Made by a program: the position numbers and the translations under genes. From the NCBI GenBank assembly GCA_963676565.1, contig OY781089.1:96001-160000 (forward strand): DNA of 64,000 nt. The letters are read 5' to 3'. The DNA comes from Halarcobacter sp. Lineage in GTDB: Bacteria > Campylobacterota > Campylobacteria > Campylobacterales > Arcobacteraceae. A model generated the notes under the pieces. It saw nothing but the letters and a program-made list of their open reading frames with translations, had not been told where the DNA came from and did not search any database. Shown one piece after another: positions 2,886 to 22,729 of the stretch (position 1 is its first letter; every line of letters begins with the position of its first letter).

Positions 2886-2939
2886 ATCTTACACGAGAAT
2901 TATAGCCTGAATTTAGCGATTGCGTAGCATTAACGTAGC
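2886..2939 (-). promoter_or_regulatory. Promoter with four GCTA direct repeats (11-bp period) and -10 TAAGAT
   Basis: TAGC on + at 2903, 2914, 2925 and 2936. TAAGAT (2891-2886) lies 11 nt past the last repeat. Confidence 0.7.
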
Positions 2940-3031
2940 AATTAGAAAAAAATGGTAACAATACCATGAAATAGGGCTTTTATCAATTGAAATTTTGTTA
3001 AAAAATTAAAAAATTATGCTACACTTTTTTT

Positions 3032-4924
3032 ATGAAAACATATAACTACACATTTTTCAATAACAACTTAACTGATTTAATTGATTATAGTATATTTAAA
3101 GATAAAGAAAATGTTCTAATTCAAATATTTTCTGGTCATGATTCAAGCACATTGGAGTTAATTACAAAAACAGTAATGGATAATATTCCACAGGCAGTAT
3201 GTTTAGGGACAACTACCGATGGAGAGATATGTGAATCAAAAATCTCTACACTTAAAACAATTATATCAATTTCAATTTTTGATAATACATATTTAAAAGC
3301 TTATTATATGAAAGGGGATGACGCATTTAATATAGGATATGAGATTGCACAAAAAGTTATCACCGATAATACAAAGTTAATAATCACTTTTACCGATGGA
3401 ACTGGGACAAATGCTGAAGAGTATTTGAAAGGTATAGAAAAATATGATAATTCTATAATGGTATGTGGTGGTATGGCAGGAGATAATGGAGTATTTAAAC
3501 AAACCTTTATCTCTTTAGGAAAGCAAATCTATCCTAAAGGGTATATAGCAGTTTCACTTAACTCAGATATATTAAAAGTAACAAACGCGAGAAAGTTTGA
3601 TTGGGTTCCAATAGGTTTAGAGCATACAATAGATGAAGTTGATGGAAATAGAATTTATAAAATCTCGGGGATGAGTCCTTCTGAGTTTTATAAAAAATAT
3701 TTAGGTGAGAGTGTTGCGCAAACAGAGTTTCCTTTAATAGTTGAAAGAAATGGGATACCAACAGCAAGAGCAGTACTTGAACAGCACAGAGATGGAAGTT
3801 TAAGTTGTGGAGGAAATTTAAGAAAAGGTGATATAGTTAGACTTGGTTTTGGGGATGCAGAATCTATAATGAATAATCCACTTAGTGCTTTAGATACAAG
3901 TTTTGATCATCCAATTGAAACTTTTTTCTTATATTCTTGTATGGCAAGAAGAAGGTATTTAAGAGAATTAATAAAACTTGAAACACAACCTTTTGCAGTT
4001 ATTGCTCCAACTTCTGGATTTTTTACTTATGCAGAGTTTTTCCATAGAGATGGTCATAATGAATTATTAAATCAAACATTAACAGTAGTAGCATTAAGTG
4101 AACATGATAAAAAAGTTAATGCATTGGAAATTTATCCAGAGAAGAAAACAAAATCAAAAAAAGATGCTGCCTTTGCAAGAACTTTAAGATCTCTTACTCA
4201 CTTAGTACAAAAAAGTACAGATGATTATCAAGACCAATCAAAAAGTTTAAAGGAATCAGAACTTTATGCACAAAACCTGCTAACGTCACAAAAACAATTT
4301 TTAAAACATGCAGTTCATGAAACAAATACACCACTTTCAATAATAATGGCAAACATTGAATTATATGAAATGGAAAATGGTAAAAATCAATACTTATCAA
4401 ATATTGAAGTAGCTATGAAAAATCTTTTTTCTATATATGATGATTTAAGTTATTTAGTAAAAAAAGATCAAATAGATTACCCTGAACATAAAATTGATTT
4501 TAAAGATTTTGTTAGAAGTAGAGTTGAGTTTTTTAACCAAGTTGCAACTAAAGTAAAATCAAAATTTGTTTTTAAAGCACCAAAAGAACCTATGGTTTTA
4601 CATTTTAATGAATCTAAACTACAAAGAATAATTGATAACAATCTTACAAATGCCATAAAATACACTTATGAAAATGAAGATATTTATGTAACATTAAAAA
4701 AAGAAGGAACTCACTTTAAACTTATGGTTTCAAGCCATTCAAAAAAAATCCAAGATCCAGACAAAATCTTTAAAGAATATTATAGAGAAGAGAAATCAAA
4801 AGATGGATTTGGATTGGGATTAAATTTAGTAAAAAGAATTTGTGATGAAGAGGGTGTTGAAATATATTTAGAATCTAACGAATATTTCACATCATTTGTT
4901 TATCTATTTAAAGGGGAAAGATGA
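3032..4924 (+). CDS. Cytoplasmic FIST-domain sensor histidine kinase
   Basis: FIST N/C motifs (GTTTDGEI, GGMAGD, YSCMARR, GFFTYAE), H-box HETNTPL, NNLTNAIKY and GFGLGL. No transmembrane segment seen. Confidence 0.88.
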   Translation: MKTYNYTFFNNNLTDLIDYSIFKDKENVLIQIFSGHDSSTLELITKTVMDNIPQAVCLGTTTDGEICESKISTLKTIISISIFDNTYLKAYYMKGDDAFNIGYEIAQKVITDNTKLIITFTDGTGTNAEEYLKGIEKYDNSIMVCGGMAGDNGVFKQTFISLGKQIYPKGYIAVSLNSDILKVTNARKFDWVPIGLEHTIDEVDGNRIYKISGMSPSEFYKKYLGESVAQTEFPLIVERNGIPTARAVLEQHRDGSLSCGGNLRKGDIVRLGFGDAESIMNNPLSALDTSFDHPIETFFLYSCMARRRYLRELIKLETQPFAVIAPTSGFFTYAEFFHRDGHNELLNQTLTVVALSEHDKKVNALEIYPEKKTKSKKDAAFARTLRSLTHLVQKSTDDYQDQSKSLKESELYAQNLLTSQKQFLKHAVHETNTPLSIIMANIELYEMENGKNQYLSNIEVAMKNLFSIYDDLSYLVKKDQIDYPEHKIDFKDFVRSRVEFFNQVATKVKSKFVFKAPKEPMVLHFNESKLQRIIDNNLTNAIKYTYENEDIYVTLKKEGTHFKLMVSSHSKKIQDPDKIFKEYYREEKSKDGFGLGLNLVKRICDEEGVEIYLESNEYFTSFVYLFKGER

Positions 4925-5583
4925 AAATTTTATTATTAGAAGATGATATTATGCTAAATGAGGCAATAACTCAATATCTTAGAACAGTAGGTCACTCTGT
5001 TCAATCTGTAAAAGATGGAGATGAGTGTCTAAAAAAATTAGATGAAGAAAAATTTGACCTTCTTGTTTTTGATATTAATGTTCCAAGTATTGATGGCCTT
5101 ACTATTTTAGAAGATTTACATAAAAAGAAAAGAATGGTACCAACTATTTTTATTTCTGCACTTATAGATATTGAAGATATCTCAAGGGCCTTTGATATTG
5201 GATGTCATGATTATTTAAAAAAACCATTTCACTTAAAAGAATTAAATCTTAGAATTGAAAAAATTCTAAAAACAAGAACTGCACCAATGAACCATAAAAG
5301 ATTATCAAAATCATACAGTTTTGATAGTGAAAGTATGACATTATATTTTAACAACGAACCACACATCTTACCCAAAAGACAACTTCAAATTATAGAACTA
5401 CTTACAAATAATAGAAGTTTAGTTTGTAACTATGATATGTTTAGGGATTACGTTTGGAATGACGACTTTATTGATAATGCAACAATTAGAGCAGAGGTAA
5501 ATAGAGTTAAAAAAGTTTTAAAAGAGGATTTTATTGTAAATGTTAGAGGTATTGGTTATATGGTTGAAAGACCTAGTTCTTAA
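4921..5583 (+). CDS. OmpR-family DNA-binding response regulator
   Basis: LLEDD, FDINVP and KPF receiver motifs plus a winged-helix C-terminus (NVRGIGY). ATGA overlap with the kinase. Confidence 0.92.
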   Translation: MKILLLEDDIMLNEAITQYLRTVGHSVQSVKDGDECLKKLDEEKFDLLVFDINVPSIDGLTILEDLHKKKRMVPTIFISALIDIEDISRAFDIGCHDYLKKPFHLKELNLRIEKILKTRTAPMNHKRLSKSYSFDSESMTLYFNNEPHILPKRQLQIIELLTNNRSLVCNYDMFRDYVWNDDFIDNATIRAEVNRVKKVLKEDFIVNVRGIGYMVERPSS

Positions 5584-5600
5584 GTAATATACTTAAGAAC
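5576..5600. terminator. Hairpin at convergent stops (response regulator / pqqE)
   Basis: GTTCTTAAGTA-ata-TACTTAAGAAC inverted repeat. Confidence 0.55.
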
Positions 5601-6723
5601 AACAGGTTTGTTTTTCAATAAATTTTAAAGAGTTTTGTTTATTTCTATAAATAGGTTGACTATCACTTTTATTTGCATTCTCAACTATTTTTTTAACAAC
5701 TCCATGATAAGCTGATTTATCACAAACTGGATCTGCTTCATGCATATCTTGTGTTAATGCATATGCTTGGCATCTGCATCCACCAAAATCTTTCTCTTTT
5801 TCAGGACAAGATCTGCATGTTGGATTCATCCATTCATCACCTCTAAAAAAATTAAAAGCTTTTGATTCATACCAAATCTCTTTTACAGAAGACTCCTTTA
5901 CATTTGGAAAATCTATTGGTAAAGTATTTGCAGTATTACATGGAAGAGCTATTCCATCTGGATTAATTGTTAAAAAAGTTGTTCCCCATCCATTCATACA
6001 TGCCTTTGGTCTATTTTCATAATAATCAGGTACTACAAAAAATACTTTCATATCTTTTCTTTTTTCCCTATAAAAATTTGTTACTTCCATAGCCTTGTCA
6101 AGTTGTTCTTTACTTGGTAAAAGAGCATCAACATTTTCTAATGCCCACCCATAGTATTGAATATTTGCAATCTCTAAATAGTTTGCTCCAAGCTCATCAC
6201 AAAACTCAATTATCTCACCAACTTGCTCAATATTTTGTCTTGTGATACAAGTATTTATAATAAGTTGCATACCAAGTTCTTTTACCTCTTTTGCAAAGGC
6301 AATTTTATCTTTCATTGCTGATTTATTGTTTGTAATTAAAGTCATAGTATTTTCATCATGAGACTGAATACCTAATTGAACAGTTTTAAGTCCAGCTTCT
6401 TTTAACTTTTTTAAAACTCCCTTTTCACCACCTACACCAGAAGTGATTAAGTTTGTATAAAATTTTAAATCATTTGCATATCTTACTACATCAACAATAT
6501 CTTTATTTAGTAAAGGTTCACCACCTGAAATTCCTAATTGAACAGCCCCTAAAGCTCTAGTTTCATCTAAAACTTTAAACCAATCTTCTTTACTCATACC
6601 ATCTTTTGTATTTGCAAAATCTAATTGATTATAACAATAAGTACACTCTAAAGGGCATTTGTGAGTTAACTCTAAAAGTACCCACAAAGGTGGTTTAATC
6701 CCCGACTTTTCATTAGTTGACAT
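5593..6723 (-). CDS. pqqE: PqqA peptide cyclase, radical SAM/SPASM
   Basis: PPLWVLLELTHKCPLECTYCYN, RPKACMNGWG and DFGGCRCQA motifs. Confidence 0.95.
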   Translation of the reverse strand: MSTNEKSGIKPPLWVLLELTHKCPLECTYCYNQLDFANTKDGMSKEDWFKVLDETRALGAVQLGISGGEPLLNKDIVDVVRYANDLKFYTNLITSGVGGEKGVLKKLKEAGLKTVQLGIQSHDENTMTLITNNKSAMKDKIAFAKEVKELGMQLIINTCITRQNIEQVGEIIEFCDELGANYLEIANIQYYGWALENVDALLPSKEQLDKAMEVTNFYREKRKDMKVFFVVPDYYENRPKACMNGWGTTFLTINPDGIALPCNTANTLPIDFPNVKESSVKEIWYESKAFNFFRGDEWMNPTCRSCPEKEKDFGGCRCQAYALTQDMHEADPVCDKSAYHGVVKKIVENANKSDSQPIYRNKQNSLKFIEKQTCCS

Positions 6724-6982
6724 AATTTACCCACTTTCTATCAAAGGCTTCATCAAAAAATGCTTCCACATCTTTTTCTAATCCTGACATCTCAAACTTT
6801 TTTTCCAATGTTGAAACTATTTCATTAAAATTCTTAGTTCCATCACATTGGTTCATTATTTCACCAGCACTTTGATTTAGTTGAACCATACCTTCTGGGT
6901 ATAATAAAACAAAACAATCTTGTGCTTGCTCAAATTGTAATTGAAAGTGTTCATTCACTACAATTAATTTTTCTTTGTTCAT
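6713..6982 (-). CDS. pqqD: PqqA-binding chaperone (RiPP recognition element)
   Basis: [19 protein letters not shown] motif, between pqqC and pqqE. Start chosen by RBS spacing. Confidence 0.9.
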
Positions 6983-7709
6983 TTTCATAACCTTCAATAT
7001 TGAAATACGGTGGTCTTTTTAATTCGTATGCCAAATATAAAGCATCACACATAGTCCAAAGTATATCAAGTTTAAACTGTAAAATTTCAAAAGCTTTATT
7101 TTGAAGTTCAACTGTATTAAACTCTTCTAAAGTGATTGAAAGTCCATGTTGAACATCCCTTCTTGCTTCACTCAATCTTTTTTGGAAATATCTCAAACCT
7201 TTTGCTTCAATCCAAGGATAATTATCTGGCCATGTACTTAATCTTTGTTGGTGAATTTGAGGTGCAAACATCTCAGTTAAAGATGACATTGCAGCTTCTT
7301 TCCAAGGTCTTTGTTTTGCAAAGTTAATATAAGCATCTACTGCAAATTTAACTGATGGTAAAACATATTTATGAGAAATTAAATCCTCTTTATTTAATCC
7401 AACAGCTTCACCTAATTCAAGCCAAGCTTCAATTCCACCACCAACACTATCATGGTCAATAATTCTATCAATCCATTTTCTTCTATCTTCTAAAGGTGGG
7501 TTATTTGACATAATTGCTGCATCTTTAATTGGAATTGCTGTTTGATAATAAAATCTATTTGCTACCCAGCCTTGGATTTCCTCTTTTGTACAATCCCCTT
7601 GATACATTCTAATATGAAATGGATGGTGAATGTGATACATATCACCCATACCTCTTAACTTTGCTTCAAACTCTTCTTTACTTAGTAATTCACTCATTTT
7701 TTTTGTCAT
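6951..7709 (-). CDS. pqqC: Pyrroloquinoline-quinone synthase
   Basis: [36 protein letters not shown] and FKLDILW motifs. Confidence 0.96.
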
Positions 7710-7772
7710 TCTTCTTCTCCTTATTTAATGTCAAATTTTTTATTTTTTTATAAAAAGAAATAAATATATTCT

Positions 7773-8690
7773 TTATATATCTATTCTCATCCCATCATAA
7801 GAAACTTCAATCCCATGGGAAATAAGTTCTTTATATTCAGGATTTTCTTCATCTAAGATTGGATTTGTATTGTTAATATGAATTAATATTTTTCGTGGTT
7901 TTTCTAAAGTATCTAAAATTTTAATAAGCCCTTCTTCTCCACTTAAAGGGATATGCCCCATATCAGTGCCTAATTTAGTAGAAAACTTACCTTTTATCAT
8001 CTCATCATTTGTCCAAAGGGTTCCTTCTATTAAAAGAACATCTGCATTTCGCATCTCTTCAAAAACATGATCTTCCATAACCCCAAGACCAGGAAGATAA
8101 AACAATCTTTTTCCTGTATTTTTATTTACAACTGTAATTCCAATATTATCACCCTTTCTTGGATGATCTCTATGTGGTGAATATGGTGGTGCATTTGAAA
8201 TAAGTGCATGGGCATAAAACTCATATGAAGGCATCACTGGTATTTCAAATTTTGTAGTAGAATCTGGCAAGATTTCATGCCAAACAGTTCCTCCACCATC
8301 CCAATGTTGTAACATTTTCATAGTAGGAAATGATGAATTCAATTCTTCATTTACCTCTTTTGTACAATAAATTTGGTGAGGACAACCTTCCCTTAACATA
8401 AGTAAACCAGTTGTATGGTCTATTTGAGCATCGTTAAATACGATTGCTTTAATTTTAGTTTCTCTTTTTTTTGTTGGATGTAAAAAAGGTGAATTATGAA
8501 TTTGCTCTAAAATATCTGGGCTAGTATTAAGTAAAACCCAGTTCTCACCATCTTCACTAATAGTAATTGAACTTTGAGTTCTTTTTTTTATACTTTTTTT
8601 GCCTTCTCTGTAACCTTTACAATTGTCACAGTTACAATTAAATTGTGGTAAGCCACCACCTGCACCTGAACCTAGAACTTGAATCCTCAC
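7773..8690 (-). CDS. pqqB: PQQ biosynthesis protein B (metallo-beta-lactamase fold hydroxylase)
   Basis: VLGSGAGGGLPQFNCNCDNC, RTQSS, DHTTGL and LIHINNTNPIL motifs. Likely GTG start at 8690 after AAAGGA. Confidence 0.94.
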   Translation of the reverse strand: MRIQVLGSGAGGGLPQFNCNCDNCKGYREGKKSIKKRTQSSITISEDGENWVLLNTSPDILEQIHNSPFLHPTKKRETKIKAIVFNDAQIDHTTGLLMLREGCPHQIYCTKEVNEELNSSFPTMKMLQHWDGGGTVWHEILPDSTTKFEIPVMPSYEFYAHALISNAPPYSPHRDHPRKGDNIGITVVNKNTGKRLFYLPGLGVMEDHVFEEMRNADVLLIEGTLWTNDEMIKGKFSTKLGTDMGHIPLSGEEGLIKILDTLEKPRKILIHINNTNPILDEENPEYKELISHGIEVSYDGMRIDI

Positions 8691-8751
8691 AATATATCCT
8701 TTCATTTTTCCTCAAAGAAAAAAATTCCCACATTTTTTTGTTTGAAGAAAA

Positions 8752-8773
8752 GACTAGAGCAAAAGCTCTAGTC
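8752..8773 (-). terminator. Hairpin between pqqA and pqqB
   Basis: GACTAGAGC-TTTT-GCTCTAGTC followed by TTTTCTT on the minus strand, 12 nt after the pqqA stop. Confidence 0.75.
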
Positions 8774-8785
8774 AAGTTTAAAAAA

Positions 8786-8860
8786 TTACTTTGTACAAAT
8801 GTACATAGTAACTTCAAAACCAAATCTGTTATCTACGAATGTAGGTGTTTCCCATTTCAT
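8786..8860 (-). CDS. pqqA: PQQ precursor peptide PqqA, MKWETPTFVDNRFGFEVTMYICTK (24 aa; absent from the ORF track)
   Basis: Hand translation gives the W.xP..RFGFEVTMY core with ExxxY. AGGAGG RBS at 8874-8869, directly upstream of pqqB. Confidence 0.96.
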   Translation of the reverse strand: MKWETPTFVDNRFGFEVTMYICTK

Positions 8861-8896
8861 TTTAGTTACCTCCTTTTTTGATTTTCAGATTAACTA

Positions 8897-10678
8897 TTAT
8901 TTTTTAAATAATTTAAATACGTGAACAGTTCCACCTTGGTTTATATTCTTAATAAGTTTTGCAACTTCACCACCCCATAAAGGAACAGCTCCACCCCAAC
9001 CTGAAACGATTGCGATATATTGCTCACCATTTTGCTCCCAAGTAATAGGAGAAGAAACAATTCCAGAACCAGCATTGTATTTAAATAAAATCTCACCAGT
9101 TTCATCATCAAATGCTAAGAATTTACCTTCAGGAGTTCCTGTAAATACAAGTCCACCAGCAGTAGTTAAAACTCCACCCCATAGTGGTGCAGGGTTTTTA
9201 TATTCCCATTTAATTTTTCCTGTCATTGGCTCAATTGCTTTAAGTGAACCAATGTGATCTTCAAAGATTGGTTTAATTGTAAATCCAGCACCTAAGTAAG
9301 CAGCACCTTTTTTATAATGAATTGGTTGATTCCAAATATCCATTCCCCACTCATTTGAAGGAACATAGAATAATTCAGTCTTTTTAGAATAAGCCATTGG
9401 CATCCAGTTTTTACCACCTAAGAATGAAGGAACAGAGAATACTGATTTACCTTTTGAAGCATCACCAGGATTTCCAGGTCTTCCATCTGCTGTTAACATT
9501 GGTCTACCATTTTTATCAATTCCAGTTGCCCAAGTAATATTTGAAACAAATGGATTAGCAGTAACGAATTTACCATTAGTTCTATCTAATACATAGAAGA
9601 AACCATTTCTATCTGCAGTTGCAGCATATTTCTTACCATCTTTATTAAATGAAACTAACTCATTAACACCATCGAAATCCCATCCATCATGTGGAGTAGT
9701 TTGATAATGCCAAACAATTTTTCCTGTATCAGGATTAATTGCTAATCTTGAAGAAGAGTATAAGTTGTCTCCTGGTCTATTATGTGAGTTCCATGGTGCA
9801 GGGTTTCCTGTTCCAAAGAATAATAAATCAGTCTCAGAGTCATATGTACCACCAAGCCAAGTTGCAGCTCCACCAGTTTTCCATAAATCTCCAGGCCATG
9901 TTTTACCAGCTTCGCCACCAGTAATTCCATTTTCTTTTCCATTTAAGTAACCCATGTGACCTTCAACAGTTGGTCTAGTCCAAATTAGTTTACCAGTTTT
10001 AGCATCATAAGCTTCAACTTTACCAACAATACCAAACTCACCACCAGCTACACCAGTGATAATCATATCTTTAACAACTAATGGAGCAGCAGTAATAGAG
10101 TAACCATCTTTATATTCCGCTACTTTTTTCTTCCATACTGTTTTTCCAGTTTTTCTGTTTAATGCCACTAATTTAGCATCTAGTGTTCCAAAAACTACTA
10201 AATCACCATAAATTGCAGCACCTCTGTTGATTACATCACAACATGGTAAGATTCCACTTGGAAGTCTTGCATCATATTGCCATAACTCTTCACCAGTTGC
10301 TAAATCAATTGCATACATTCTAGAATAAGATGCAGTTACATACATAACACCATCTTTTACTAATGGTTGAGATTCTTGACCTCTTTGTTTTTCACCACCA
10401 AATGAGAAATTCCATACAGAAACTAAATCTTTAACAGTCTCTTTATTCACCTGAGTCAGTGGTGAAAATCTTTGACCATTTTGTCCATGTCCATATGTTA
10501 AAACATCCCCAGTTGTTTTATCATCATTTAAAATCTCATCATATGTTACAGATGTATATGATGGCTTTGTAACCGCTGATTTACTATCAGACATTGCAGT
10601 GTTGCTAGTCGCACATCCACTAATTAATGCAGAAAGCGTAACAGCTACTGCACTAGTTAGTAAAAAACTCTTTTTCAT
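8897..10678 (-). CDS. pedH: PQQ-dependent alcohol dehydrogenase, lanthanide-type (PedH/ExaF-like), predicted lipoprotein
   Basis: Vicinal PCCD, GGEFG, GNPAPW and FLGGKNW motifs. The active-site [13 protein letters not shown] has the extra Asp (D336). N-terminal lipobox ISGC. Confidence 0.88.
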
Positions 10679-10723
10679 GCTATCTCCTTTTATAATTGTC
10701 AGACTGAAAATTGTCTTAAGAGA

Positions 10724-10755
10724 AGTATATATGAGAAAAGTAGCAACAGTTTAGC
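10724..10755 (-). promoter_or_regulatory. pedH-pqq promoter: GCTA-N7-GCTA-N11-TATACT
   Basis: TAGC on + at 10741 and 10752; agtata at 10724-10729. Confidence 0.75.
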
Positions 10756-11533
10756 TATTGTTAACTTTTTTTGATTTAAACCCTAAAAATGCCATAATTA
10801 AAGTTATAATAAGAGATATTACTAGTACTAGAAGTGCCTGTGTATCGACCTTTAGGTATAGTGAGAACCTAATAGATTCTACAATATAAGTAAAAGGATT
10901 ATATGAAGAAATTTCATATAAAAGTATAGACGAATCTTTAATTTTCCAAAGTGGGTATAAAGCGGAACTTAAAAAGAACATTGGGAAGATAACAAAGTTC
11001 ATTACAGTTGCAAAATTTTCTAATTGTTTTATAACAGAAGAGATAAAAAGTGCAAAGGCATTAAGAATTATAGATGAAATTATAATTATAGGAATAGTTA
11101 CCACTATTGCCAAATATGAAATATCTACCCCATACAATTTAGCAATAAGTAAAAAAGTGATTGCTTGAATTGTTGATACTATTGAAGTTGCAAACATTTT
11201 ACAAAATAGTAAGAAATTTCTATTTATATAAGAAGATAAAAGTATTTTCATACTACCCATCTCCCTATCAAATATCATTGTTAAACTACTTTGCATACCA
11301 TTAAAAAGTAATACCATCCCAACAAGTCCTGGAACAATATAGGTTTCATAGGTGATATAAGTTTCATATGGAGGAGTAATAGCAAGTCCTAAAGCAGTTT
11401 TAAAACCAACTGAAAAGATAAATAGCCAAAGTAAAGGTCTAACAAGAGCTGAAAAAAATCTACTTTTTTGTTTAACGAATCTAATTAATTCTTTGTAGAT
11501 AATACCTTTCATACAATTAAAATATATATTCAT
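10751..11533 (-). CDS. pedC: ABC-2 type permease, PQQ-dependent alcohol dehydrogenase system (PedC-like)
   Basis: SALVRPLLWL, PPYETYITYETYIVPGL and NFVIFPMFFLSSALYPLW motifs. Confidence 0.82.
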   Translation of the reverse strand: MNIYFNCMKGIIYKELIRFVKQKSRFFSALVRPLLWLFIFSVGFKTALGLAITPPYETYITYETYIVPGLVGMVLLFNGMQSSLTMIFDREMGSMKILLSSYINRNFLLFCKMFATSIVSTIQAITFLLIAKLYGVDISYLAIVVTIPIIIISSIILNAFALFISSVIKQLENFATVMNFVIFPMFFLSSALYPLWKIKDSSILLYEISSYNPFTYIVESIRFSLYLKVDTQALLVLVISLIITLIMAFLGFKSKKVNNS

Positions 11534-11535
11534 GG

Positions 11536-12258: not shown

Positions 12259-12270
12259 TTTACAACTTTA

Positions 12271-13242: not shown

Positions 13243-13263
13243 TAATTCCCTTTTAATAAAAAT

Positions 13264-13683: not shown

Positions 13684-13711
13684 GCATAATCCTTTTTGTA
13701 ATTTATCTTTA

Positions 13712-13798
13712 ATTGTAATGAAGCTTTATAGCTATAATATAGCGTATTGATTTTTGTTATCATATTGCTAGACTGAGGCTATACATTTTATATATACT
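13712..13798. promoter_or_regulatory. Divergent promoter pair, each GCTA-N7-GCTA-N11-(-10)
   Basis: Leftward: TAGC at 13729 and 13740, TACAAT at 13717-13712. Rightward: GCTA at 13767 and 13778, TATACT at 13793-13798. Confidence 0.78.
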
Positions 13799-13825
13799 TT
13801 TACAAAATATATTTTAAGGATAGAA

Positions 13826-14977
13826 ATGAAACGATTATTTAGTCTATTTTTAATGTTAGGGTTTATAAATGCCTTTGCACTAGAAGTAAATATTTTATAT
13901 CTAGAACAAAAAATAAAAAAGCCTCCAGTACTTTCAAATATAATTGAAGACCCAGAAGATTTAGGATTAAAGGGGGCTCAAAAAGCTATAATAGACTCAA
14001 ATAAAAGTGCTAGATTTTTAAATCAAAAATACAATCTAATTGAAAAAATCTCTTATGATAAAGCTCAATTAAAAAAAGATTTTGAAGAATTTATAAATGC
14101 AGGTAACTCATATGTGGTATTAAATGTAGAAGATGATTTTTTAAAAGTGTTACTAAATGACCCACTTTCAAAAAAAGCTTTAATGGTAAATGCATCTAGT
14201 CCAACTACAAGTTTAAGACAAAACTACTGTTTACCAAACTTACTTCATACAGCTCCTTCAAATGCCATGCTTTATGATGGCTTAGTTCAATTTTTAGTAA
14301 AAAGAGATTTTAAAGATATCTTTTTAATAAGTGGAGAAAATCCAAAAGATAAAGAGATACTAAAAGATATAAAAAGGTCAGTAAAAAAATTTAATGCAAA
14401 AATTATAAAAGAAAAAGTTTGGGATAATAATTCAGATATTAGAAGAAAAGCAAATGCAGAATTTCCTGTATTTACACAAGCTAGTGATTATGATTTAATT
14501 ATGTTAGCTGACCATTATGGAGATTTTGGGGAGTTTATGTATTTTAATACTTGGCTTCCTAGACCAATAGCCGGAACTCAGGGATTAACTCCAACAGCTT
14601 GGCATAAAGTTATTGAAGCTTGGGGAGCAGCTCAAATGCAAAGTAGATTTGAAAAGTTTGCAAAAAGATGGATGCAATCAAAGGATTACACAAACTGGAC
14701 AGCAGTTAGATCTATCATTGGTGCAATCACAAAAACAAATTCTGCTGATTTAAAAACAAACCTTGATTTTATTCACTCTGATAAGTTTGATTTAGCAGCA
14801 TATATGGGAAGAAAATTATCATTTAGAGATTATAATGGACAGCTTAGAATGCCAATTTCACTTGTTCAACCTAGGGCACTTATTTCAGTTTCTCCACAAG
14901 TTGGCTTTTTACATCCTAAAACTGATTTAGATACTTTGGGTATTGCACCCTTTGAGATGAAGTGTAAAAATGATTAA
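13826..14977 (+). CDS. ABC transporter substrate-binding protein, PQQ-ADH system (PedA1-like)
   Basis: Type-I periplasmic binding fold with HTAPSNAMLYDGLVQFL, WGAAQMQSRF, LSFRDYNGQLR and SPQVGFLHP..LDTLG motifs. Confidence 0.82.
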   Translation: MKRLFSLFLMLGFINAFALEVNILYLEQKIKKPPVLSNIIEDPEDLGLKGAQKAIIDSNKSARFLNQKYNLIEKISYDKAQLKKDFEEFINAGNSYVVLNVEDDFLKVLLNDPLSKKALMVNASSPTTSLRQNYCLPNLLHTAPSNAMLYDGLVQFLVKRDFKDIFLISGENPKDKEILKDIKRSVKKFNAKIIKEKVWDNNSDIRRKANAEFPVFTQASDYDLIMLADHYGDFGEFMYFNTWLPRPIAGTQGLTPTAWHKVIEAWGAAQMQSRFEKFAKRWMQSKDYTNWTAVRSIIGAITKTNSADLKTNLDFIHSDKFDLAAYMGRKLSFRDYNGQLRMPISLVQPRALISVSPQVGFLHPKTDLDTLGIAPFEMKCKND

Positions 14978-15425
14978 ATCTTTTCTTGCACTTTTAGTTC
15001 TTAGCCTAAGTATAAATGCCTATGAGGTAACAGATAAAGATAATTACTTTACTGTAAAAATTCAAGATGAAAAATTTCATGAACTATATGTGAATTTAAA
15101 AGATGAAATAAATTTTAATTCATATGTTATAGTTCATGAATTAAATTTAGCAAAGTCTACTAAGGCTGTTGCTGATGCTCTAGAGGAAAAAGTTGTTGTA
15201 AAAAATGGAATAAATTTATTGATTTGTAAAACCTCATTTACCCTTAAAATGCATCAAGAAAATATTCACAATATGACTTTTTGTCCAATGGTTATCTCTA
15301 TATACGAAGATGAAACCTCAAACTATATATCTTTTAGGAAATATCACCCTCTAAATAACAATGATAAAATAGCACTTACTATAAATAAAAGACTAAAAAC
15401 ATTAATTTTAAACTCCCTTGATTAA
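14970..15425 (+). CDS. Exported DUF302-domain protein
   Basis: Signal peptide; LLICK...FCPMVISIYE pattern. Confidence 0.65.
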   Translation: MIKSFLALLVLSLSINAYEVTDKDNYFTVKIQDEKFHELYVNLKDEINFNSYVIVHELNLAKSTKAVADALEEKVVVKNGINLLICKTSFTLKMHQENIHNMTFCPMVISIYEDETSNYISFRKYHPLNNNDKIALTINKRLKTLILNSLD

Positions 15426-15509
15426 AAACTTTCACCTTAATTAAAATTTTTTTTAAATTGCTATTTAAATATATAATAATATAATGATATTATCTATAGG
15501 GAGAGAATT

Positions 15510-17636
15510 ATGAAAAATAATATAATAATACTATTGATAATTATTTGTTTCTCGATATTTTTTTTTCTAACTTTAGATATAAATAAAAATGAATTAATAA
15601 ATACAGAAAAAAAAGATGATAACTCCAAGATTGAATTAAAACTTGCCCATAATCTACCAAAAAATAGTGCTTTACATGAAGCATCTGTTTTATATGCAAA
15701 AAAAATAGCTGAACTTACAAAAAATAGAGTGGAAATTAAAATATTCCCTGAACAAAAATTAGGAAATGACTATCAAATGATAGAGCTGGCAAGTCAAGGA
15801 AAAATTGATATTATAATAACTCCTACTGCAAAAATGAGTGTATCAGTTCCCTCAATGCAATATGCAGACTTACCATTTTTATTTCCAACAAGAGAGGATG
15901 CCTATGAACTTTTAGATGGAGAAGTTGGGAAAATGATTCTAAAAGATTTAGATAAAATTGATCTTTTAGGTATTGGTTTTTGGGAGAATGGCTTTAAACA
16001 TTTTACTGCGAACTCTAAATTAACTAGTCCGACAGATTTCAAAGGCAAAAAGATTAGAGTTATGAAAAGTAGAATAATAATGGAGCAATTTAAAGCTTTA
16101 GGGGCACAAGCTATACCTATTGATTTTCATTCTACTAAAAAAGCTTTAGAAGATAAAGTTGTTGATGGACAGGAAAACCCTTTAGTTGCAATTGTAAATA
16201 TGCAATTTCATAAAGTTCAATCAAATTTAACTATAAGCGAACATGCATATTTACCATATTTATTTTCCATGAGTAAAAAAAGCTTACGAAAACTTCCTGT
16301 AGAGATTCAAGATATTTTAACTAATAATTTAGATGAGATTACAAAATGGGAAAGAAAAGAAACCCAAATAAGAGAAAAAGAGTTCCTAGAAACAATAAAA
16401 AATGAAGGTGTAAAAATACACTATTTAACAAAAGAAGAGAAAGAAGCCTTTAGAGAAAAAACTAAATATATTGTAAAAATGTATGAAAGAGTGATTGGTT
16501 CAAATATAATTTCTAAAACTGAAGAGATATTAAATAAAAAATATGCAAATAAAGATAATATATATTTTGGTTTAGATGTAAATCTTTCAATTGGAAATAA
16601 AGACTCAGGCTTATCTTTAAAAAGAGGCGTTGAATTGGCAATTGAAGAGATTAATTCAAATGGTGGATTATTAGGTAAAAAAATCAACCTTCTTACAAAA
16701 GATAATGAAGCTATTACAACTAAGGCTTTGAAAAATTTTAAAGAGTTCTCAAAAAATGACAATGTAAAAGTTGTAATAGGTGGGAAAAGAAGTTCTATAA
16801 TTTCAAAAGAACTAGAAGATATCCAAAAAAGTAAAAAACCTTATTTTTCACCTTGGGCATCTGCAGATAAAATTGTTAATAATGGTTATGAAGAAAACTA
16901 TATTTTTAGAGTTTCTACAAATAATAAATTTATTATAAATAGACTTTTAAAAGAGTCTTTAAAAGATGATAAAAAGCCCTTAATCGTTGTCGAAAACTCT
17001 ATTTGGGGAAGAGGAGCCCTAGAACTTATAAAACAAGACAATAAAGAGTTAGAATCTATTATTATAAACCAAGGTCAAACTAATTTTGATAATTTAATAT
17101 CTAAAATAAAACAACATAAAACAAAATCAATCTTAATGGTTTTAAATACTTTAGAAGCATCAAATATCTTAAAGACTTTGTATGAAAACCAAATAAAGAT
17201 ATCAATATCTTCACATTGGGGTATTTTAGGTGGAAAGTTTTATGAACAAAATAAAGAATACCTAAGTAATATCGATTTGAAATTTATTCAATCTTTTAGC
17301 TTTATAAAAAATAAATCAAAGAAAGCAGAAGAGTTTGCTTTAAGATATATCAAAAAATATGGTGAGAAATCTACTTATGATATAGTTTCTCCTTCCTCTG
17401 TTGCTCAAGCATATGATTCTACTATGATAATTGCACAAGCAATAAAAGATGCCAACTCCTTTGAGGGAGAAAAAATAAAAAATGCCCTAGAAAATTTAAA
17501 AGAATATAATGGTTTGATAAAAAAATATATAAAACCATTTAGTAAAACTGACCACGAAGCTTTAGAGAAAAAAGACTTTTTCTTTGCAAAATATGATCAA
17601 AAAGGAAGAGTTATTCCAATTGGTGAAATAAAGTAA
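15510..17636 (+). CDS. Membrane-anchored fusion of TRAP solute-binding (DctP) and LivJ-like ABC solute-binding domains
   Basis: N-terminal hydrophobic segment. DctP motifs (GKKIRVM, VVDGQENP), then a type-I binding domain (GVELAIEEINSNGGLLGKKI, AQAYDS). Confidence 0.8.
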   Translation: MKNNIIILLIIICFSIFFFLTLDINKNELINTEKKDDNSKIELKLAHNLPKNSALHEASVLYAKKIAELTKNRVEIKIFPEQKLGNDYQMIELASQGKIDIIITPTAKMSVSVPSMQYADLPFLFPTREDAYELLDGEVGKMILKDLDKIDLLGIGFWENGFKHFTANSKLTSPTDFKGKKIRVMKSRIIMEQFKALGAQAIPIDFHSTKKALEDKVVDGQENPLVAIVNMQFHKVQSNLTISEHAYLPYLFSMSKKSLRKLPVEIQDILTNNLDEITKWERKETQIREKEFLETIKNEGVKIHYLTKEEKEAFREKTKYIVKMYERVIGSNIISKTEEILNKKYANKDNIYFGLDVNLSIGNKDSGLSLKRGVELAIEEINSNGGLLGKKINLLTKDNEAITTKALKNFKEFSKNDNVKVVIGGKRSSIISKELEDIQKSKKPYFSPWASADKIVNNGYEENYIFRVSTNNKFIINRLLKESLKDDKKPLIVVENSIWGRGALELIKQDNKELESIIINQGQTNFDNLISKIKQHKTKSILMVLNTLEASNILKTLYENQIKISISSHWGILGGKFYEQNKEYLSNIDLKFIQSFSFIKNKSKKAEEFALRYIKKYGEKSTYDIVSPSSVAQAYDSTMIIAQAIKDANSFEGEKIKNALENLKEYNGLIKKYIKPFSKTDHEALEKKDFFFAKYDQKGRVIPIGEIK

Positions 17637-19357
17637 TGAAACCTAAACCAATTAAAAATAGTATAAAAAATAAAATCATAATTCAATTTACCCTCATATT
17701 ATCTGTTTTTTTGTTACTAATTTCATTTTCAATTGGTTATTTATTTATTAAAAACACAGAATCCCATGCACAAGATTTATTAAAAAATAGAGCCTTATTA
17801 ATAGAAGAAAAAATACAAGAAAGACTTTATTACCTAATTGAGCAAACATCACTTCTTTCAAAAAACTCACTTATGGTTAATTCTTTAATTGATGATGATA
17901 ATAAAGAGGAATACCTTTTACCACTAGCTTCAAATTTTATGGAAGATAAAAATGTAAAAGACCTAAATATCATAGATTTTGATGGTGAGATAATTTTTAA
18001 AACTGCTAAAAATGTACCTAAATATAGTAAATCAATATATATTAGAAATGCACTAGCACTAGGACAAACAACATATTATTTAGAGAAAAATGAAAACAAA
18101 TTTATTGTTGTTTCACCTGTTAAATATTATGAAACAACCCAAGGGGCTTTAATAGCTACTTTTAATCTTGAAAAAATCTTACGAAAATATATAGTTAATT
18201 CAAATGATGAATATATTGAGATACTAAATACTAAAAATGATAAACTTTTATACACAAATAACCACGATGAAAATAAAAAGTACTATTCTTATAGTTTAAA
18301 AAATCAAAACTTATCACTTTTTGATGAATTAAATATTACATTAAATATTGGAAAACTAGAATCTGCATATCTATTTCCCATACAAGATGCTGTAAAAAAA
18401 GTACTTATTATGAGTTTTATTCTAATCTTGATTGGAACCTTACTCTCATATTTATTAGCTGAATCAATCACTAAACCTATTATAGAATTATATAAAAAGA
18501 TAAACAATAATGAGTTTCATGAAAGATATAAGCCTTTAGGCACAAATGATGAATTAGAAGTATTATCATTTGCATTCCATGAAAAAGTAAAACAATTAAA
18601 TCAATTTAAAAATGAAGAGTTAGAGAAACAAAAACTTTTACTAGAACAGTCAAAAATGGCCTCATTAGGTGAGATGATTGGAAATATTGCCCATCAATGG
18701 AGACAACCTTTATCTGTTATATCAACTGCTTCAAGTGGTTTAAAAATGAAACAAGAATATGGGATTTTAGAAGAACATGAGATGTATTCTGTTCTTGATT
18801 CTATTAATGAAAACACCCAATACTTATCAAAAACAATTGATGACTTTAGAAATTTTATTATTGGGAAAAGAGAAAAGAAACAATTTAACTTAAGTAAACA
18901 AATTGATAGTTTTTTATCTTTAATGATGGGAAGTATAAAAACACATGAAATCAATATAGTACGTAAAGAACAAACAGATATAGAGATTAATGGATACCCA
19001 AATGAATTAACCCAATGTTTAATGAATATAATTAATAACTCAAAAGATGCCTTTGAAGAAAAGGGAATAAAAGAAAAATATATTTTTATAAAAACATATA
19101 CTAAAAATTCTTCAATTTTTATAGAAATTAAAGACAATGCAGAAGGTATTGATGAAGATATTATCCTAAAAATATTTGAACCTTATTTTACAACAAAACA
19201 TAAATCCAGAGGTACAGGATTAGGACTTAGTATGACATATAGATTGATTACTGAAGGGATGAAGGGTAATATAAAAGTAAGAAACACAACTTTTAATTAT
19301 GAAAAGAAAACCTATAAAGGGGCAGAATTTATTATTACTTTACCCCCTGTAGATTAG
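17636..19357 (+). CDS. Membrane sensor histidine kinase (periplasmic Cache-like domain, HAMP)
   Basis: Two TM segments, KMASLGEMIGNIAHQWRQPL, FEPYFTTK and GTGLGL. TAATG overlap with the upstream gene. Confidence 0.88.
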   Translation: MKPKPIKNSIKNKIIIQFTLILSVFLLLISFSIGYLFIKNTESHAQDLLKNRALLIEEKIQERLYYLIEQTSLLSKNSLMVNSLIDDDNKEEYLLPLASNFMEDKNVKDLNIIDFDGEIIFKTAKNVPKYSKSIYIRNALALGQTTYYLEKNENKFIVVSPVKYYETTQGALIATFNLEKILRKYIVNSNDEYIEILNTKNDKLLYTNNHDENKKYYSYSLKNQNLSLFDELNITLNIGKLESAYLFPIQDAVKKVLIMSFILILIGTLLSYLLAESITKPIIELYKKINNNEFHERYKPLGTNDELEVLSFAFHEKVKQLNQFKNEELEKQKLLLEQSKMASLGEMIGNIAHQWRQPLSVISTASSGLKMKQEYGILEEHEMYSVLDSINENTQYLSKTIDDFRNFIIGKREKKQFNLSKQIDSFLSLMMGSIKTHEINIVRKEQTDIEINGYPNELTQCLMNIINNSKDAFEEKGIKEKYIFIKTYTKNSSIFIEIKDNAEGIDEDIILKIFEPYFTTKHKSRGTGLGLSMTYRLITEGMKGNIKVRNTTFNYEKKTYKGAEFIITLPPVD

Positions 19358-19752
19358 TATTTCCCAAACTCTTTGTAAGTTTTATCTTCAAAAATTATAA
19401 ATACTGTTTTAGGGTTTTTATCGTTTTCATAAGCTGGAAGAGATAATCCAATTGCATTTTTAGGTTTTTCCTTCAAAAAGTCTTTTATAGCACGTGAGGG
19501 AACATTCCCTTCAAAAACATAATCTCCCATTAGTGAAGTATTACAAGATTGAATATCATAAGGAATTCCTATTTGTCTTTTTAAATTTTTTACATTCATA
19601 ACTGTAACAACATCAACCTCTTTTGCTACTTTTTCCATCTCTATAAACCAAGATTTAGGGCAAGTGCTTGTTGGTGGTTGAAAAACTTGTAGTTTAGATT
19701 CACTGGCAAAAAGTGAAATTGCCAACAAACAAAAAGCTAAAATTTTCATCAT
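19354..19752 (-). CDS. Exported DUF411/CopG-like protein with degenerate metal ligands
   Basis: KRQIGIP..IQSCNT..GDYVFEGNVP..I.DFL.EKP..IGL matches the DUF411 pattern. Confidence 0.65.
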   Translation of the reverse strand: MMKILAFCLLAISLFASESKLQVFQPPTSTCPKSWFIEMEKVAKEVDVVTVMNVKNLKRQIGIPYDIQSCNTSLMGDYVFEGNVPSRAIKDFLKEKPKNAIGLSLPAYENDKNPKTVFIIFEDKTYKEFGKY

Positions 19753-20447
19753 AATTCTCCTTTTAAAATATTTGGATATTTTTCCAATAGATTATTTTTT
19801 ATTTGATCAATATTTTTAATATCAAAACTTTGATTATTAGGGTTATTAAACTCTAAAACTATTTTTGCAGGTTTACTAGAAAGAAATAAAATTCTATTGG
19901 AAAATAAAATTGCTTCACTAATATCATGAGTTACTAAAACAACAATTGGATTAAACTTATTACATAGTTTTAAAAACTCTTTTTTTAATTCTTGGGAAGT
20001 TGGAAAATCCAAAGATATAAAAGGTTCATCTAAAAAAATTACCTCTGGTTGGTTTATAAAAGCTCTAGCTAGTGCAACTCTTCTTTTCATACCACCAGAT
20101 AAAGCCTTTGGAAACTTATCTAAAACATCTTCTAATGCAACTAATTTTAAAATATCATTTATCTCATCTAAATCTTTAGATCTTGAAACTAATAAAAGAT
20201 TTTCTTTGATACTAAGCCAAGGTAATAATCTATCATCTTGAAACATAAATGATATATTTTTATAAGGCATTGAAATATCACCTTTGTAATCAGTTTCTAA
20301 ATTTGCCAATAAATTTAAAAAAGTGCTTTTACCACAACCACTAGGACCAACAATTGAAATGAACTCTTGTTCTTTAATTTTAAATTCAATATCTTCTAAT
20401 ACCTTTATTTCATTAAAACTTTTGTTTTGAATATTTATATTTATCAT
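19749..20447 (-). CDS. NitT/TauT-family ABC ATP-binding protein
   Basis: GPSGCGKST, LSGGMKRRVALARA and LDEPF. Confidence 0.9.
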   Translation of the reverse strand: MININIQNKSFNEIKVLEDIEFKIKEQEFISIVGPSGCGKSTFLNLLANLETDYKGDISMPYKNISFMFQDDRLLPWLSIKENLLLVSRSKDLDEINDILKLVALEDVLDKFPKALSGGMKRRVALARAFINQPEVIFLDEPFISLDFPTSQELKKEFLKLCNKFNPIVVLVTHDISEAILFSNRILFLSSKPAKIVLEFNNPNNQSFDIKNIDQIKNNLLEKYPNILKGEL

Positions 20448-20448
20448 T

Positions 20449-21183
20449 TTATTTCCATTCCAACATCTTATTTTCTAAAGGTTTTAAAATAGCCATCTCT
20501 ATAAACATAACAATAAAAATAAAAGCTAAAGAATAAGCTAATATAGAAGTTATATCAAAAAATTGGAAAAACATTGAGATTTTAAATCCTATACCATCAC
20601 TTCTCCCAAGTAATTCAACAACTAAAACTATTTTCCAAATTAAAGACAAAGATAATCTAGCAGAAGCCATCATATATGGATAAATTTGAGGTAAAAAAAC
20701 TTTGAAAAACACTTGTTTTTTTGGAACCTTATAAACTTTTGCTAAATCCATATATTTTGACTCAATTGCCCTAGTCCCTTCCCTTATATTAACAACTACT
20801 ATTGGAACTTTATTTATAATTACAGCTAGAAGTGCTGCAAAATCAGTTAATCCAAACCAAATATAACAAATAACAATTACTACTAAAGCTGGAATATTTA
20901 AACCTAAAACTAATAAAAAATCAAAGATATCATCTATTTTTTTTGATATTCCCATTATAATTCCAAAAAATATTCCAATTATCATAGTGATAAAAAATGT
21001 TATTACAACCCTAAATAGTGTAATCTTTAAATCATCTAATAATTCCCCATCTACTAAATGTTCAAATAGTTTTATACCTATATCAACAGATGAAGGGAAA
21101 ACTTGAGATGCAAGGACTATTGAAGAGGCTTGCCATATGATAATAAAAGCACAAATTGATAATAATCTAGTTTGTAACAACAC
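20449..21183 (-). CDS. NitT/TauT-family ABC permease
   Basis: Six TM segments; WKIVLVVELLGRSDGIG. Confidence 0.88.
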   Translation of the reverse strand: MLLQTRLLSICAFIIIWQASSIVLASQVFPSSVDIGIKLFEHLVDGELLDDLKITLFRVVITFFITMIIGIFFGIIMGISKKIDDIFDFLLVLGLNIPALVVIVICYIWFGLTDFAALLAVIINKVPIVVVNIREGTRAIESKYMDLAKVYKVPKKQVFFKVFLPQIYPYMMASARLSLSLIWKIVLVVELLGRSDGIGFKISMFFQFFDITSILAYSLAFIFIVMFIEMAILKPLENKMLEWK

Positions 21184-21201
21184 TTTTTCCTAATTTTTAT
21201 T

Positions 21202-22161
21202 TTACTGATTAGTTTCCCAAAAAGTTGCAGGGTCTAACTCTTTGCTATTTTTAACTAATTTTTTTCCACCTTGTTTTTGTAATACTTTAAATATTTTTTT
21301 TGAATCTTCGATGTTTTTTTCATCAAATTTAAGTATCACTCCATTTTTATAGCCCTCTTTTAATGAGTTAAATGTTACTTCATCTTTTACTTTCATCAGT
21401 GGTTTTATTCTATCCCATTCTTTATCATCTTCTAACAAGATTTTTTTAGCACTTTTACTTGCATTTATAAATGAATCATATAATCTTGGATCCATGAGAG
21501 CTAAATCTCTTCTAAATGTCCAACCAATTAAAGGTATATCTTCATTAATTCCAAAACTTTTAAAAACCTCTTTAATTTCAATAATAGGTCTTGCTCCTTT
21601 TGCCTTTGCTTTTGCATTAAAATGCCAAAAGTTCAGCGCTCCATCTAAAGAACCATCAAGTACTTTTTTAAGTAATATGGGAGGAGCAGCAAAGGTTGGA
21701 TTAATAATATCTTTAAAATCTTTGCCATATTTTAATTTACTATATGCCCTTAAGATAAGCCAAGTTTTATCAACAGGTCCTCCTGCAACTCCAATATTTT
21801 TCCCTTCTAAATCTAATAAAGTTTTAGCATTACTGTTTTTTCCAAGGTATAAAGTCCCCGTTGCCTTAGAATAAGGGTAAAGTGTATAATCTCCCCCATT
21901 TGCCCTTTGAGTATTTACCCAAACCCAATCAGTAACTATAATATCAACACTTCCAGATTGAAGGGCTATTGATGTAGCATTTTTTGAAGCTAGTTTAACA
22001 ACTTCAAGTTCAAAACCATTTTTAATATCAAGTTTATTATGTTTTAAAACATCTAATTCCCAATTAACTGTTCCAAATGCTAAAACACCTACTTTTAATT
22101 TTTCCAAAGCATATAAATTTGTAAACAAAAAACAAATTGTTAAAAATATGATTTTAAACAT
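21202..22161 (-). CDS. NMT1/TauA-like substrate-binding protein, probably PqqT-like (PQQ binding)
   Basis: GVLAFGTVNWEL, IVTDWVWV, GGPVDKTW and LNFWHF motifs. From memory, this family is linked to xoxF/ped clusters. Confidence 0.65.
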   Translation of the reverse strand: MFKIIFLTICFLFTNLYALEKLKVGVLAFGTVNWELDVLKHNKLDIKNGFELEVVKLASKNATSIALQSGSVDIIVTDWVWVNTQRANGGDYTLYPYSKATGTLYLGKNSNAKTLLDLEGKNIGVAGGPVDKTWLILRAYSKLKYGKDFKDIINPTFAAPPILLKKVLDGSLDGALNFWHFNAKAKAKGARPIIEIKEVFKSFGINEDIPLIGWTFRRDLALMDPRLYDSFINASKSAKKILLEDDKEWDRIKPLMKVKDEVTFNSLKEGYKNGVILKFDEKNIEDSKKIFKVLQKQGGKKLVKNSKELDPATFWETNQ

Positions 22162-22187
22162 CTATCTACCTTTTAATTATTTTTTAT

Positions 22188-22272
22188 ATTGTATATCAAT
22201 TAAGTAGCATCAATTTAGCATAATAAAAGATTTTTTAATTGCTATAATCAAGCTATAAAAACACTTTATAAT
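22188..22272. promoter_or_regulatory. Divergent promoter pair, each GCTA-N7-GCTA-N11-(-10)
   Basis: Leftward: TAGC at 22205 and 22216, TACAAT at 22193-22188. Rightward: GCTA at 22241 and 22252, TATAAT at 22267-22272. Confidence 0.8.
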
Positions 22273-22725: not shown

Positions 22726-22729
22726 TATT

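Follow-up and report, generated by a model that had tools for sequence, protein, structure and literature searches.

Genes and direct repeats of the island

The sequence analyzed here is a 64,000 nt stretch (the window) of contig OY781089.1 from Halarcobacter sp., assembly GCA_963676565.1. The genome is 3.34 Mb in one contig and has 28.4% GC. The window carries a 20-kb island of genes for alcohol and aldehyde oxidation, and the subject of this work is a direct repeat of GCTA upstream of the island operons, together with a sensor kinase and an OmpR-type response regulator of the same island that are proposed to act through it. The repeat, with the form GCTA-N7-GCTA-N11-TAnnnT, is present as one operator for each of the six metabolic and transport operons. 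Minus strand sites are given below as the plus strand starts of TAGC.

The first operon (777–2820, minus strand) encodes an ExaC-like NAD-dependent aldehyde dehydrogenase (ALDH, 1327–2820), which scores 837 bits with the AcaldDHExaC model, below the cutoff of 900, and a DUF779 protein (777–1154). The promoter has an array of four GCTA units with an 11-bp period (minus strand, 2903/2914/2925/2936, array 2903–2939), and the -10 hexamer TAAGAT (2886–2891) is 11 nt past the proximal GCTA. Translation of ALDH starts with the ATG at 2820, downstream of a ribosome-binding site, for a protein of 497 aa with a full-length Aldedh match. The start in the list of open reading frames (ORFs), 2967, would put the repeats inside the ALDH frame; the true start thus leaves them upstream. 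The two proximal units of the array are of the island type, and the two distal units resemble a paralogous type from an acetate cluster (see below).

The second operon (5593–10678, minus strand) consists of the gene for an alcohol dehydrogenase that depends on pyrroloquinoline quinone, PQQ (the PQQ-ADH, 8897–10678), pqqA (8785–8859), a hairpin (8752–8773) and pqqBCDE (5593–8705). Its operator at 10724–10755 (minus strand) has GCTA at 10741/10752 and TATACT at 10724–10729. Its distal GCTA and the stop codon of the permease gene upstream overlap. The third operon (13683–10751, minus strand) encodes a 139-aa protein (13264–13683), a PQQ-associated beta-propeller protein, an ATP-binding cassette (ABC) ATPase and an ABC-2 permease. 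The operator is at 13712–13743 (minus strand), with GCTA at 13729/13740 and TACAAT at 13712–13717. An earlier note on this DNA labelled the 139-aa protein cupredoxin-like, a label that is unconfirmed, as there is no Pfam or NCBIfam match. The fourth operon (13826–15425, plus strand) encodes a PQQ-ADH-system substrate-binding protein (TIGR03863) and a 151-aa protein and is preceded by GCTA at 13767/13778 and TATACT at 13793–13798 (whole operator 13767–13798, plus strand).

The fifth operon (22161–19354, minus strand) is a second ABC transporter operon and consists of genes for a 319-aa binding protein (21202–22161), a permease, an ATPase and a DUF411 protein. GCTA is at 22205/22216 and TACAAT at 22188–22193 (whole 22188–22219, minus strand). 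The binding protein had been called PqqT-like; only a weak SsuA_fam match below cutoff was found, and this label is likewise without confirmation. The sixth operon (22306–25259, plus strand) encodes cytochrome c-550 PedF, a binding protein, a SoxYZ-like carrier and a zinc metallohydrolase, with GCTA at 22241/22252 and TATAAT at 22267–22272 (whole 22241–22272, plus strand). No operator is found before the kinase-regulator operon, pqqB, pqqE or the DUF411 gene, in this island and in ten syntenic relatives.

Comparison of the PQQ-ADH with solved structures gives E values of 1e-267 or better for 6zcw/6zcv, which we take to be PedH, and 1e-201 for 1flg; the WDFDG stretch is shared. It is the single PQQ-ADH match in this genome. 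TIGR03075, c550_PedF, TIGR03866, TIGR03863, TIGR04557 and TIGR04558 all score over cutoff in the island. With a PedH/ExaA-type quinoprotein alcohol dehydrogenase, PedF, pqqA–E and PQQ-system ABC and beta-propeller genes, the island is a cluster of the ped/exa kind.

The earlier note had described the motif at six promoters with identical spacing. By reading of four intergenic regions and by pattern search, every coordinate and spacing proves exact, and the gap between the proximal GCTA and the -10 hexamer is 11 nt at 6/6 promoters. The claimed architecture, direct repeats of 11-bp period that end 11 nt before a sigma70-type -10, is also as described. Tandem direct repeats with a period of ~11 bp are present at all six promoters, with arrays of four to six units at some promoters, those of relatives included. 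The operator consensus is GCTA-W-A-Y-T-N-A-N, followed by GCTA-T-A-W-A. The TAnnnT hexamers would represent functional -10 boxes, and a transcription start ~7 nt past the hexamer would put the two GCTA cores near -38 and -27. A scan with the sigma70 consensus gives 100 promoter-like sites versus a shuffle mean of 113.7, the AT-rich DNA making such a scan uninformative. Four raw RNA runs labelled with another organism were mapped on positions 2801–22800 and gave 0–4 partial reads per run, with no coverage.

Occurrence of the motif in the genome

The core GCTA-N7-GCTA has nine matches in the window, compared with a mean of 0.68 and a maximum of 4 in 100 dinucleotide shuffles, none of which reaches nine. 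Genome-wide there are 52 GCTA pairs with a spacing of 7, whereas the spacings 4, 10 and 13, which have the same codon phase, have 10, 22 and 14 pairs. A crude ORF call places 28 of these 52 pairs outside ORFs; three more, those of the ALDH promoter, fell within an ORF that this call had made too long. With N11-TAnnnT added, the full pattern is found 11 times genome-wide, six times within the island. By these counts the motif is non-random.

A weight matrix was trained on 54 sites from nine relatives, with this genome and a 97%-identical neighbour left out, and both strands of the 3.34 Mb were scanned (6.7 million positions). The six island promoters score 24.5–38.9 bits and are all within the top 7. 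The top eight also hold the promoter of a gene similar to type II NADH dehydrogenase (NDH-2-like; 27.3 bits) and an in-gene site at 699,445 (22.3 bits); the next score is 13.4.

The NDH-2-like promoter represents a seventh operator. It is located at 1,888,370, outside the window (genome G000; positions 3370–3404 of locus L055), 72 nt before a Pyr_redox_2 gene. The pattern GCTA-N7-GCTA-N11-TAnnnT is present before the best NDH-2-like orthologue in 4/5 relatives. Weaker, half-degenerate copies of the operator are seen at 1,885,216 and 1,882,935, before FeS-assembly-like and HupE genes.

Sensor kinase and response regulator

The kinase gene (3032–4924, plus strand), towards which no GCTA pair is directed, encodes a FIST_N plus FIST_C sensor histidine kinase of 630 aa. 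Profile matches to FIST (2.4e-30) and FIST_C (2.2e-18) are fused to HisKA and HATPase_c, with no receiver or Hpt domain. No hydrophobic segment is found in the protein, which is thus predicted to be cytoplasmic. The C-terminus has a weak match to the NahK/ErcS 'near_NosP' model (47 bits, cutoff 400). Sequence search found no solved relative of the FIST part.

The kinase stop codon overlaps the start of the regulator gene (4921–4924), and both genes are retained together at all orthologous loci examined. The regulator (4921–5583, plus strand) is the proposed binder of the repeats, and its identification as an OmpR-type protein in the earlier note is borne out. It has matches to Response_reg (4.7e-25) and, over the gathering score, to Trans_reg_C (2.1e-09) and aligns end to end with DrrD (1kgs), with the acidic pocket E7-D8-D9, D51 and K101 in register. 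It also aligns over its full length to BasR and PrrA. Among 25 Arcobacteraceae orthologues the recognition helix does not vary, and it is near-invariant in a second family.

Conservation of the motif in related genomes

A PQQ-ADH match is present in 43 of 151 family genomes. Thirty loci were compared, one of which is cut at the 5' end of the gene. Upstream of the PQQ-ADH gene the full pattern is found in 25/29 loci (that of Halarcobacter sp. included), 77–84 nt before the ATG, with ADH identities down to 71%. The remaining four loci have CCTA in place of the distal GCTA, a one-base change. The position of the motif is conserved while the surrounding sequence diverges across genera.

Ten relatives with ADH identities of 69–96% were compared over ~38 kb each. 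The kinase/regulator pair and the island are syntenic in all ten. The full pattern is present before the ALDH gene in 9/10, including TAnnnT at N11, and four-repeat arrays are found there in most island-bearing relatives. It precedes the ADH gene in 8/10, the binding-protein operon in 9/10, the second ABC operon in 9/9 and the pedF operon in 9/9, the last count being based on the orientation of the site towards the neighbouring binding-protein gene. For the beta-propeller operon the count is 10/10, i.e., 6/6 before the gene for the 139-aa protein and 4/4 before the propeller gene where the 139-aa gene is missing.

Additional operators are observed before inserted genes in some relatives. One (G018; L037/L038, merged positions 13415 and 16349) has sites before a second PQQ-ADH paralogue that is 57% identical. 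Another (G130; L043/L044, merged 27535–27593) has six tandem units.

The kinase is more widely distributed than the PQQ island. An orthologue is found in 117/151 family genomes, compared with 43/151 for PQQ-ADH; kinase matches near the 1e-60 cut-off are paralogues. In all of 15 genomes that do not have PQQ-ADH, a DUF779-ALDH unit is divergent from the kinase-regulator pair. The full motif is exact in 13 of them, with four-repeat arrays in 12, and the arrays of the remaining two contain one-base variants. Among 301 sampled genomes of the phylum, a second family has kinase orthologues in 8/11 genomes with 54–59% kinase identity. The gene adjoining the motif is of a different kind in this family. 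In one genus it encodes a 907-aa molybdenum (Mo) aldehyde oxidoreductase (6/6 loci), and in another genus the motif precedes a tungsten-type (W-type) aldehyde:ferredoxin oxidoreductase gene with ThiS- and ThiF-like genes. In a separate collection of 18 loci, some of which are from the same genomes as the other comparisons and one of which is too short, 15/17 have a divergent full motif 100–150 nt before the kinase gene.

Five whole genomes, of which four do not have the PQQ island, were searched for GCTAWANTNNNGCTA-N11-TANNNT. This pattern is found 1, 2, 1, 1 and 3 times, and the reversed control does not occur. One copy is always beside the kinase gene, ~150–200 nt before it. Two genomes with an ALDH 79–80% identical but with no kinase orthologue have no GCTA pair in 4.5 kb (n = 2 only). 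A second GCTA pair with another type of flank is seen ~70–110 nt before the kinase start and points away from it (L112, L114, L116–L118 and the ALDH-kinase spacers of G115 and G054). Through this pair the kinase operon may be autoregulated, or the pair may belong to the ALDH promoter as an upstream site.

The assignment of the motif to the regulator at 4921–5583, made in the earlier note, is supported by these comparisons. Synteny is complete in the ten relatives, the motif follows the kinase/regulator pair both without PQQ genes and into another family, the pattern is near-unique to the kinase-adjacent promoter in the five genomes, and the recognition helix is invariant. It is hardly conceivable that the repeats are chance or repeat-derived sequence without a regulatory role. 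AT-rich intergenic DNA is of low complexity, which favors such an origin, but the shuffle counts, the constant position amid flanks that diverge across genera, the empty reversed control and the matrix ranking of the island sites all contradict it.

Other classes of GCTA repeats

At least two other sets of repeats with a GCTA core are found in the genome. An acetate cluster at 1,332,001–1,351,000 (L051) encodes ackA, pta, a second ackA, two DUF485 plus SSF permease pairs and DUF294/CBS proteins, and also an sCache_2 kinase and an OmpR-type regulator (1,348,507–1,350,718). This regulator is 52% identical to the island regulator and has a nearly identical recognition helix. Five TGCTA-type repeat pairs with the same 11-bp period are present at promoters of the cluster, one of them with TATAAT at N11. 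The 15-mer at 1,343,520 is the same, letter for letter, as the distal ALDH pair at position 2925 of the window. Acetate-type sites score 8.9 bits or less with the repeat matrix and 5.7 bits or less with the full matrix.

A third class, ATGCTA-N5-ATGCTA, is observed at 2,750,507, 2,756,234, 2,758,193 and 2,767,556 (L052). Each copy is followed by a conserved stretch with the palindrome CGTTAAGCG. The repeats precede HpaB-like, phenol-hydroxylase-like, OprD-like and PrpF genes, i.e., an aromatic-catabolism island. As a GCTA core at an 11-bp period is common to other site classes, only the extended motif is specific.

The presence of the acetate-type repeats raises the possibility that the island repeats are a true operator with a different binder, which could be the acetate-cluster paralogue, another OmpR-type regulator, or an alternative sigma factor of the extracytoplasmic function (ECF) type, in which case the sites would be a promoter class. 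The near-identical helix, the shared core and period of the paralogue sites, and the common 15-mer in the two distal ALDH repeats point in this direction. In addition, an ECF sigma mutant of A. butzleri is reported to affect an ALDH operon and ackA-pta (PMC3445524). This explanation is nevertheless quite unlikely. The full matrix separates the two classes (5.7 bits or less for acetate-type sites versus 24.5–38.9 for the island), the motif follows the FIST-kinase pair and not the acetate cluster through three gene contexts, and the -10 hexamers are of the ordinary sigma70 type.

Proposed function of the repeats

The repeats probably represent the operator of the island's own two-component system, the FIST kinase (3032–4924) and the OmpR/PhoB-type regulator (4921–5583), with activation similar to that at a pho box. 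Direct repeats of 11 bp, upstream arrays and a rigid phasing to the -10 together make up the arrangement by which OmpR/PhoB-type regulators activate promoters that have no -35. The site is read as an activator operator because its repeat geometry and -10 phasing match this type of activation. In the proposed mechanism, a signal, most likely aldehyde or something tied to aldehyde load, would lead the kinase to phosphorylate the regulator. The regulator would then bind along one helix face in head-to-tail order, with each 11-bp unit taken by one monomer. With the proximal unit ending 11 nt before a sigma70-type -10, it would take the place of a -35 and recruit RNA polymerase. The sequence comparisons establish the motif, its specificity and conservation and its co-occurrence with the regulator, whereas what is said of binding, of the kind of effect, of the signal and of transcription starts is prediction. 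The putative regulon consists of ALDH-DUF779, pedH-pqqA(-pqqBCDE), the beta-propeller/ABC-2 operon, the PQQ-system binding-protein operon, the second ABC operon, the pedF operon and the NDH-2-like flavoprotein gene.

The same regulator at the same operator might instead be a repressor that covers the -35 and spacer region and keeps RNA polymerase out until the signal displaces the regulator. The box would extend from about -38 to -17 relative to the expected start, where occlusion is possible. A -35 cannot be recognised in the promoters, and the sigma70 scan does no better on the real sequence than on shuffles, so that an activator is not strictly required. Repression is unlikely, however, as the rigid N11 phasing in 6/6 sites and in nearly all orthologous sites and the upstream head-to-tail arrays constitute an activation geometry, and substrate-inducible catabolic operons under two-component control are usually activated.

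Several points weigh against activation by the island's own system. Promoters in this AT-rich group need no -35, and a protein at the operator could therefore repress. The GCTA-N7-GCTA core is not unique, as at least two other classes with an 11-bp period exist (the acetate cluster and the aromatic-catabolism island), and cross-binding is possible given the some 40–50 OmpR-type regulators encoded in the genome. The matrix test is only partly independent, as its training sites were selected for the exact core and are from related genomes, and the relatives are non-independent samples. No exact pair lies near two further kinase orthologues, L096 and L097 from the other order-level relatives, or near those of two loci with Sulfurospirillum titles, L107 and L108. 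A further control layer may also exist; the A. butzleri ECF sigma effect may reflect an upper layer or be indirect.

The motif and its proposed regulator are not confined to ped-type genes, and the conserved core target is an aldehyde-oxidising enzyme. The system is probably an aldehyde-responsive two-component system that recruited a ped-like island, with the PQQ island as an accessory target. Aldehyde, or a close consequence of aldehyde load, is the most economical guess for the signal because the adjoining target is always an aldehyde oxidiser, from three unrelated families, and the kinase is cytoplasmic. A broader proposal is more tentative and is considered possible rather than probable: that the FIST domain is a cytoplasmic sensor of aldehyde or aldehyde load, and that the kinase/regulator pair is a widespread Campylobacterota module wired through a portable GCTA operator to three non-homologous aldehyde oxidisers and, in Arcobacteraceae, controlling the whole lanthanide-type PQQ alcohol-oxidation island.

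Additional sequence features

The pqqA gene has 24 codons and directly follows the ADH gene. It is followed by a hairpin with a 9-bp stem and a T tail before pqqB (8752–8859 for gene and hairpin, minus strand). This hairpin may set the ratio of pqqA to pqqB–E transcript. In the 5' leader of the PQQ-ADH gene an inverted repeat (10698–10719, minus strand) is located just past the -10 and is kept in nearly all 29 orthologous leaders. The repeat pairs differ, being AGAC/GTCT in this genome and ACAAA/TTTGT in most relatives. It may form a leader hairpin or represent a second operator.

Downstream of the fourth operon is an insertion (15510–19357, plus strand) that encodes a DctP-Peripla_BP_6 fusion and an orphan dCache_1 histidine kinase. 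It is absent from the ten relatives compared. The 84-nt gap before the fusion gene contains the sigma70-like sequence TTGCTA-16-TATAAT. The insertion may provide a second sensory input.

The ninth core match in the window, at 45286 (minus strand), was considered as a further promoter of the regulon and rejected; it has 3.3 bits, paralogue-type flanks and no downstream gene. The surrounding region (45203–45300, minus strand) has the pair at 45286–45300, TATAAT at N11 and then ~55 nt that end in a strong terminator hairpin (z = -4.0). No ORF is found in the transcript region, and no Rfam family reaches its gathering score there. The core of the short transcript recurs, identical in every letter, behind similar promoters of two other species (L059, L068). 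The region is a candidate for a small RNA with a CCUUC loop.

Comparison with known systems

The operator is similar to the pho box of PhoB. A pho box likewise consists of two or more direct repeats, placed on one side of the helix by an 11-bp period, and lies close upstream of the -10 at a fixed distance, and the regulator in both is a receiver plus winged-helix protein. The system described here differs in its GCTA half-site, its cytoplasmic FIST kinase and its aldehyde/alcohol-oxidation regulon, and the binding is a predicted one.

The acetate-cluster system is a related system of the same genome, with its 52% identical regulator, its near-identical helix and 11-bp GCTA repeats before pta and actP-like genes. 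It is unlike the island system in the half-site flanks (TGCTA-Y-N-T-T), the sensor domain and the targets (ackA, pta, DUF485/SSF permeases).

The Pseudomonas ped/exa system (PedS2/PedR2, EraSR, ErbR/AgmR) shares with the island the control of a PedH/ExaA-type PQQ-ADH cluster by a two-component system, which is predicted here from sequence comparison. Genes for PedF, pqq functions, a PedA1A2BC-like transporter and an ExaC-like ALDH are present here too. In Pseudomonas, PedR2 and EraR are described as LuxR-type activators of PQQ-ADH genes (PMC6115532). The output there is LuxR-type (PedR1/ErbR, PedR2/EraR), whereas the sole regulator of the island is of the OmpR type and all operons share one operator. 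There is also no sign here of a lanthanide-switch pair, the genome having one PQQ-ADH. The earlier note held that the OmpR-type regulator replaces the LuxR/NarL circuitry. This agrees with the finding of no LuxR/GerE domain among 31 island ORFs scanned (1–30.8 kb), but the replacement is not of the whole circuit, as Pseudomonas ped clusters also encode a FIST protein.

In NosP, FIST domains provide haem/nitric oxide (NO) sensing (PMC12570481). A NosP homologue, PP_2663, is co-cistronic with the kinase PedS1 (ErcS'/NahK) inside Pseudomonas ped clusters (PMC12997753). The two systems are alike in that a FIST sensor is coupled to a soluble histidine kinase in an alcohol-oxidation cluster. They differ in that the Pseudomonas FIST protein is a separate NO-sensing haem protein that modulates a hybrid kinase leading to a phosphorelay, whereas in the island system FIST is joined in one protein to a classical kinase whose cognate regulator is OmpR-type. 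The occurrence of a NosP homologue in Pseudomonas ped clusters suggests that a FIST input to alcohol oxidation may be shared while the output is different. If the FIST domain of the island kinase does sense aldehyde or aldehyde load, the NosP homologue/PedS1 pair may feed like information into alcohol oxidation, beyond NO. Three unrelated aldehyde oxidisers as swapped neighbours give a hint as to the class of ligand for the FIST domain, which so far is known from NosP as a sensor of the haem/NO kind.

The literature searched, a limited collection of papers, contained no description of this regulon or of a link between FIST and aldehyde. The motif can be used to annotate regulon members, e.g., the NDH-2-like gene and the second PQQ-ADH paralogue of some relatives. 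For the Arcobacteraceae, a precise operator and a regulon of seven promoters are proposed for alcohol and aldehyde oxidation. This implies that one OmpR-type two-component system may run a complete PedH-type cluster, i.e., enzyme, PQQ synthesis, cytochrome and transporters, where Pseudomonas has a multi-layer LuxR-type network.

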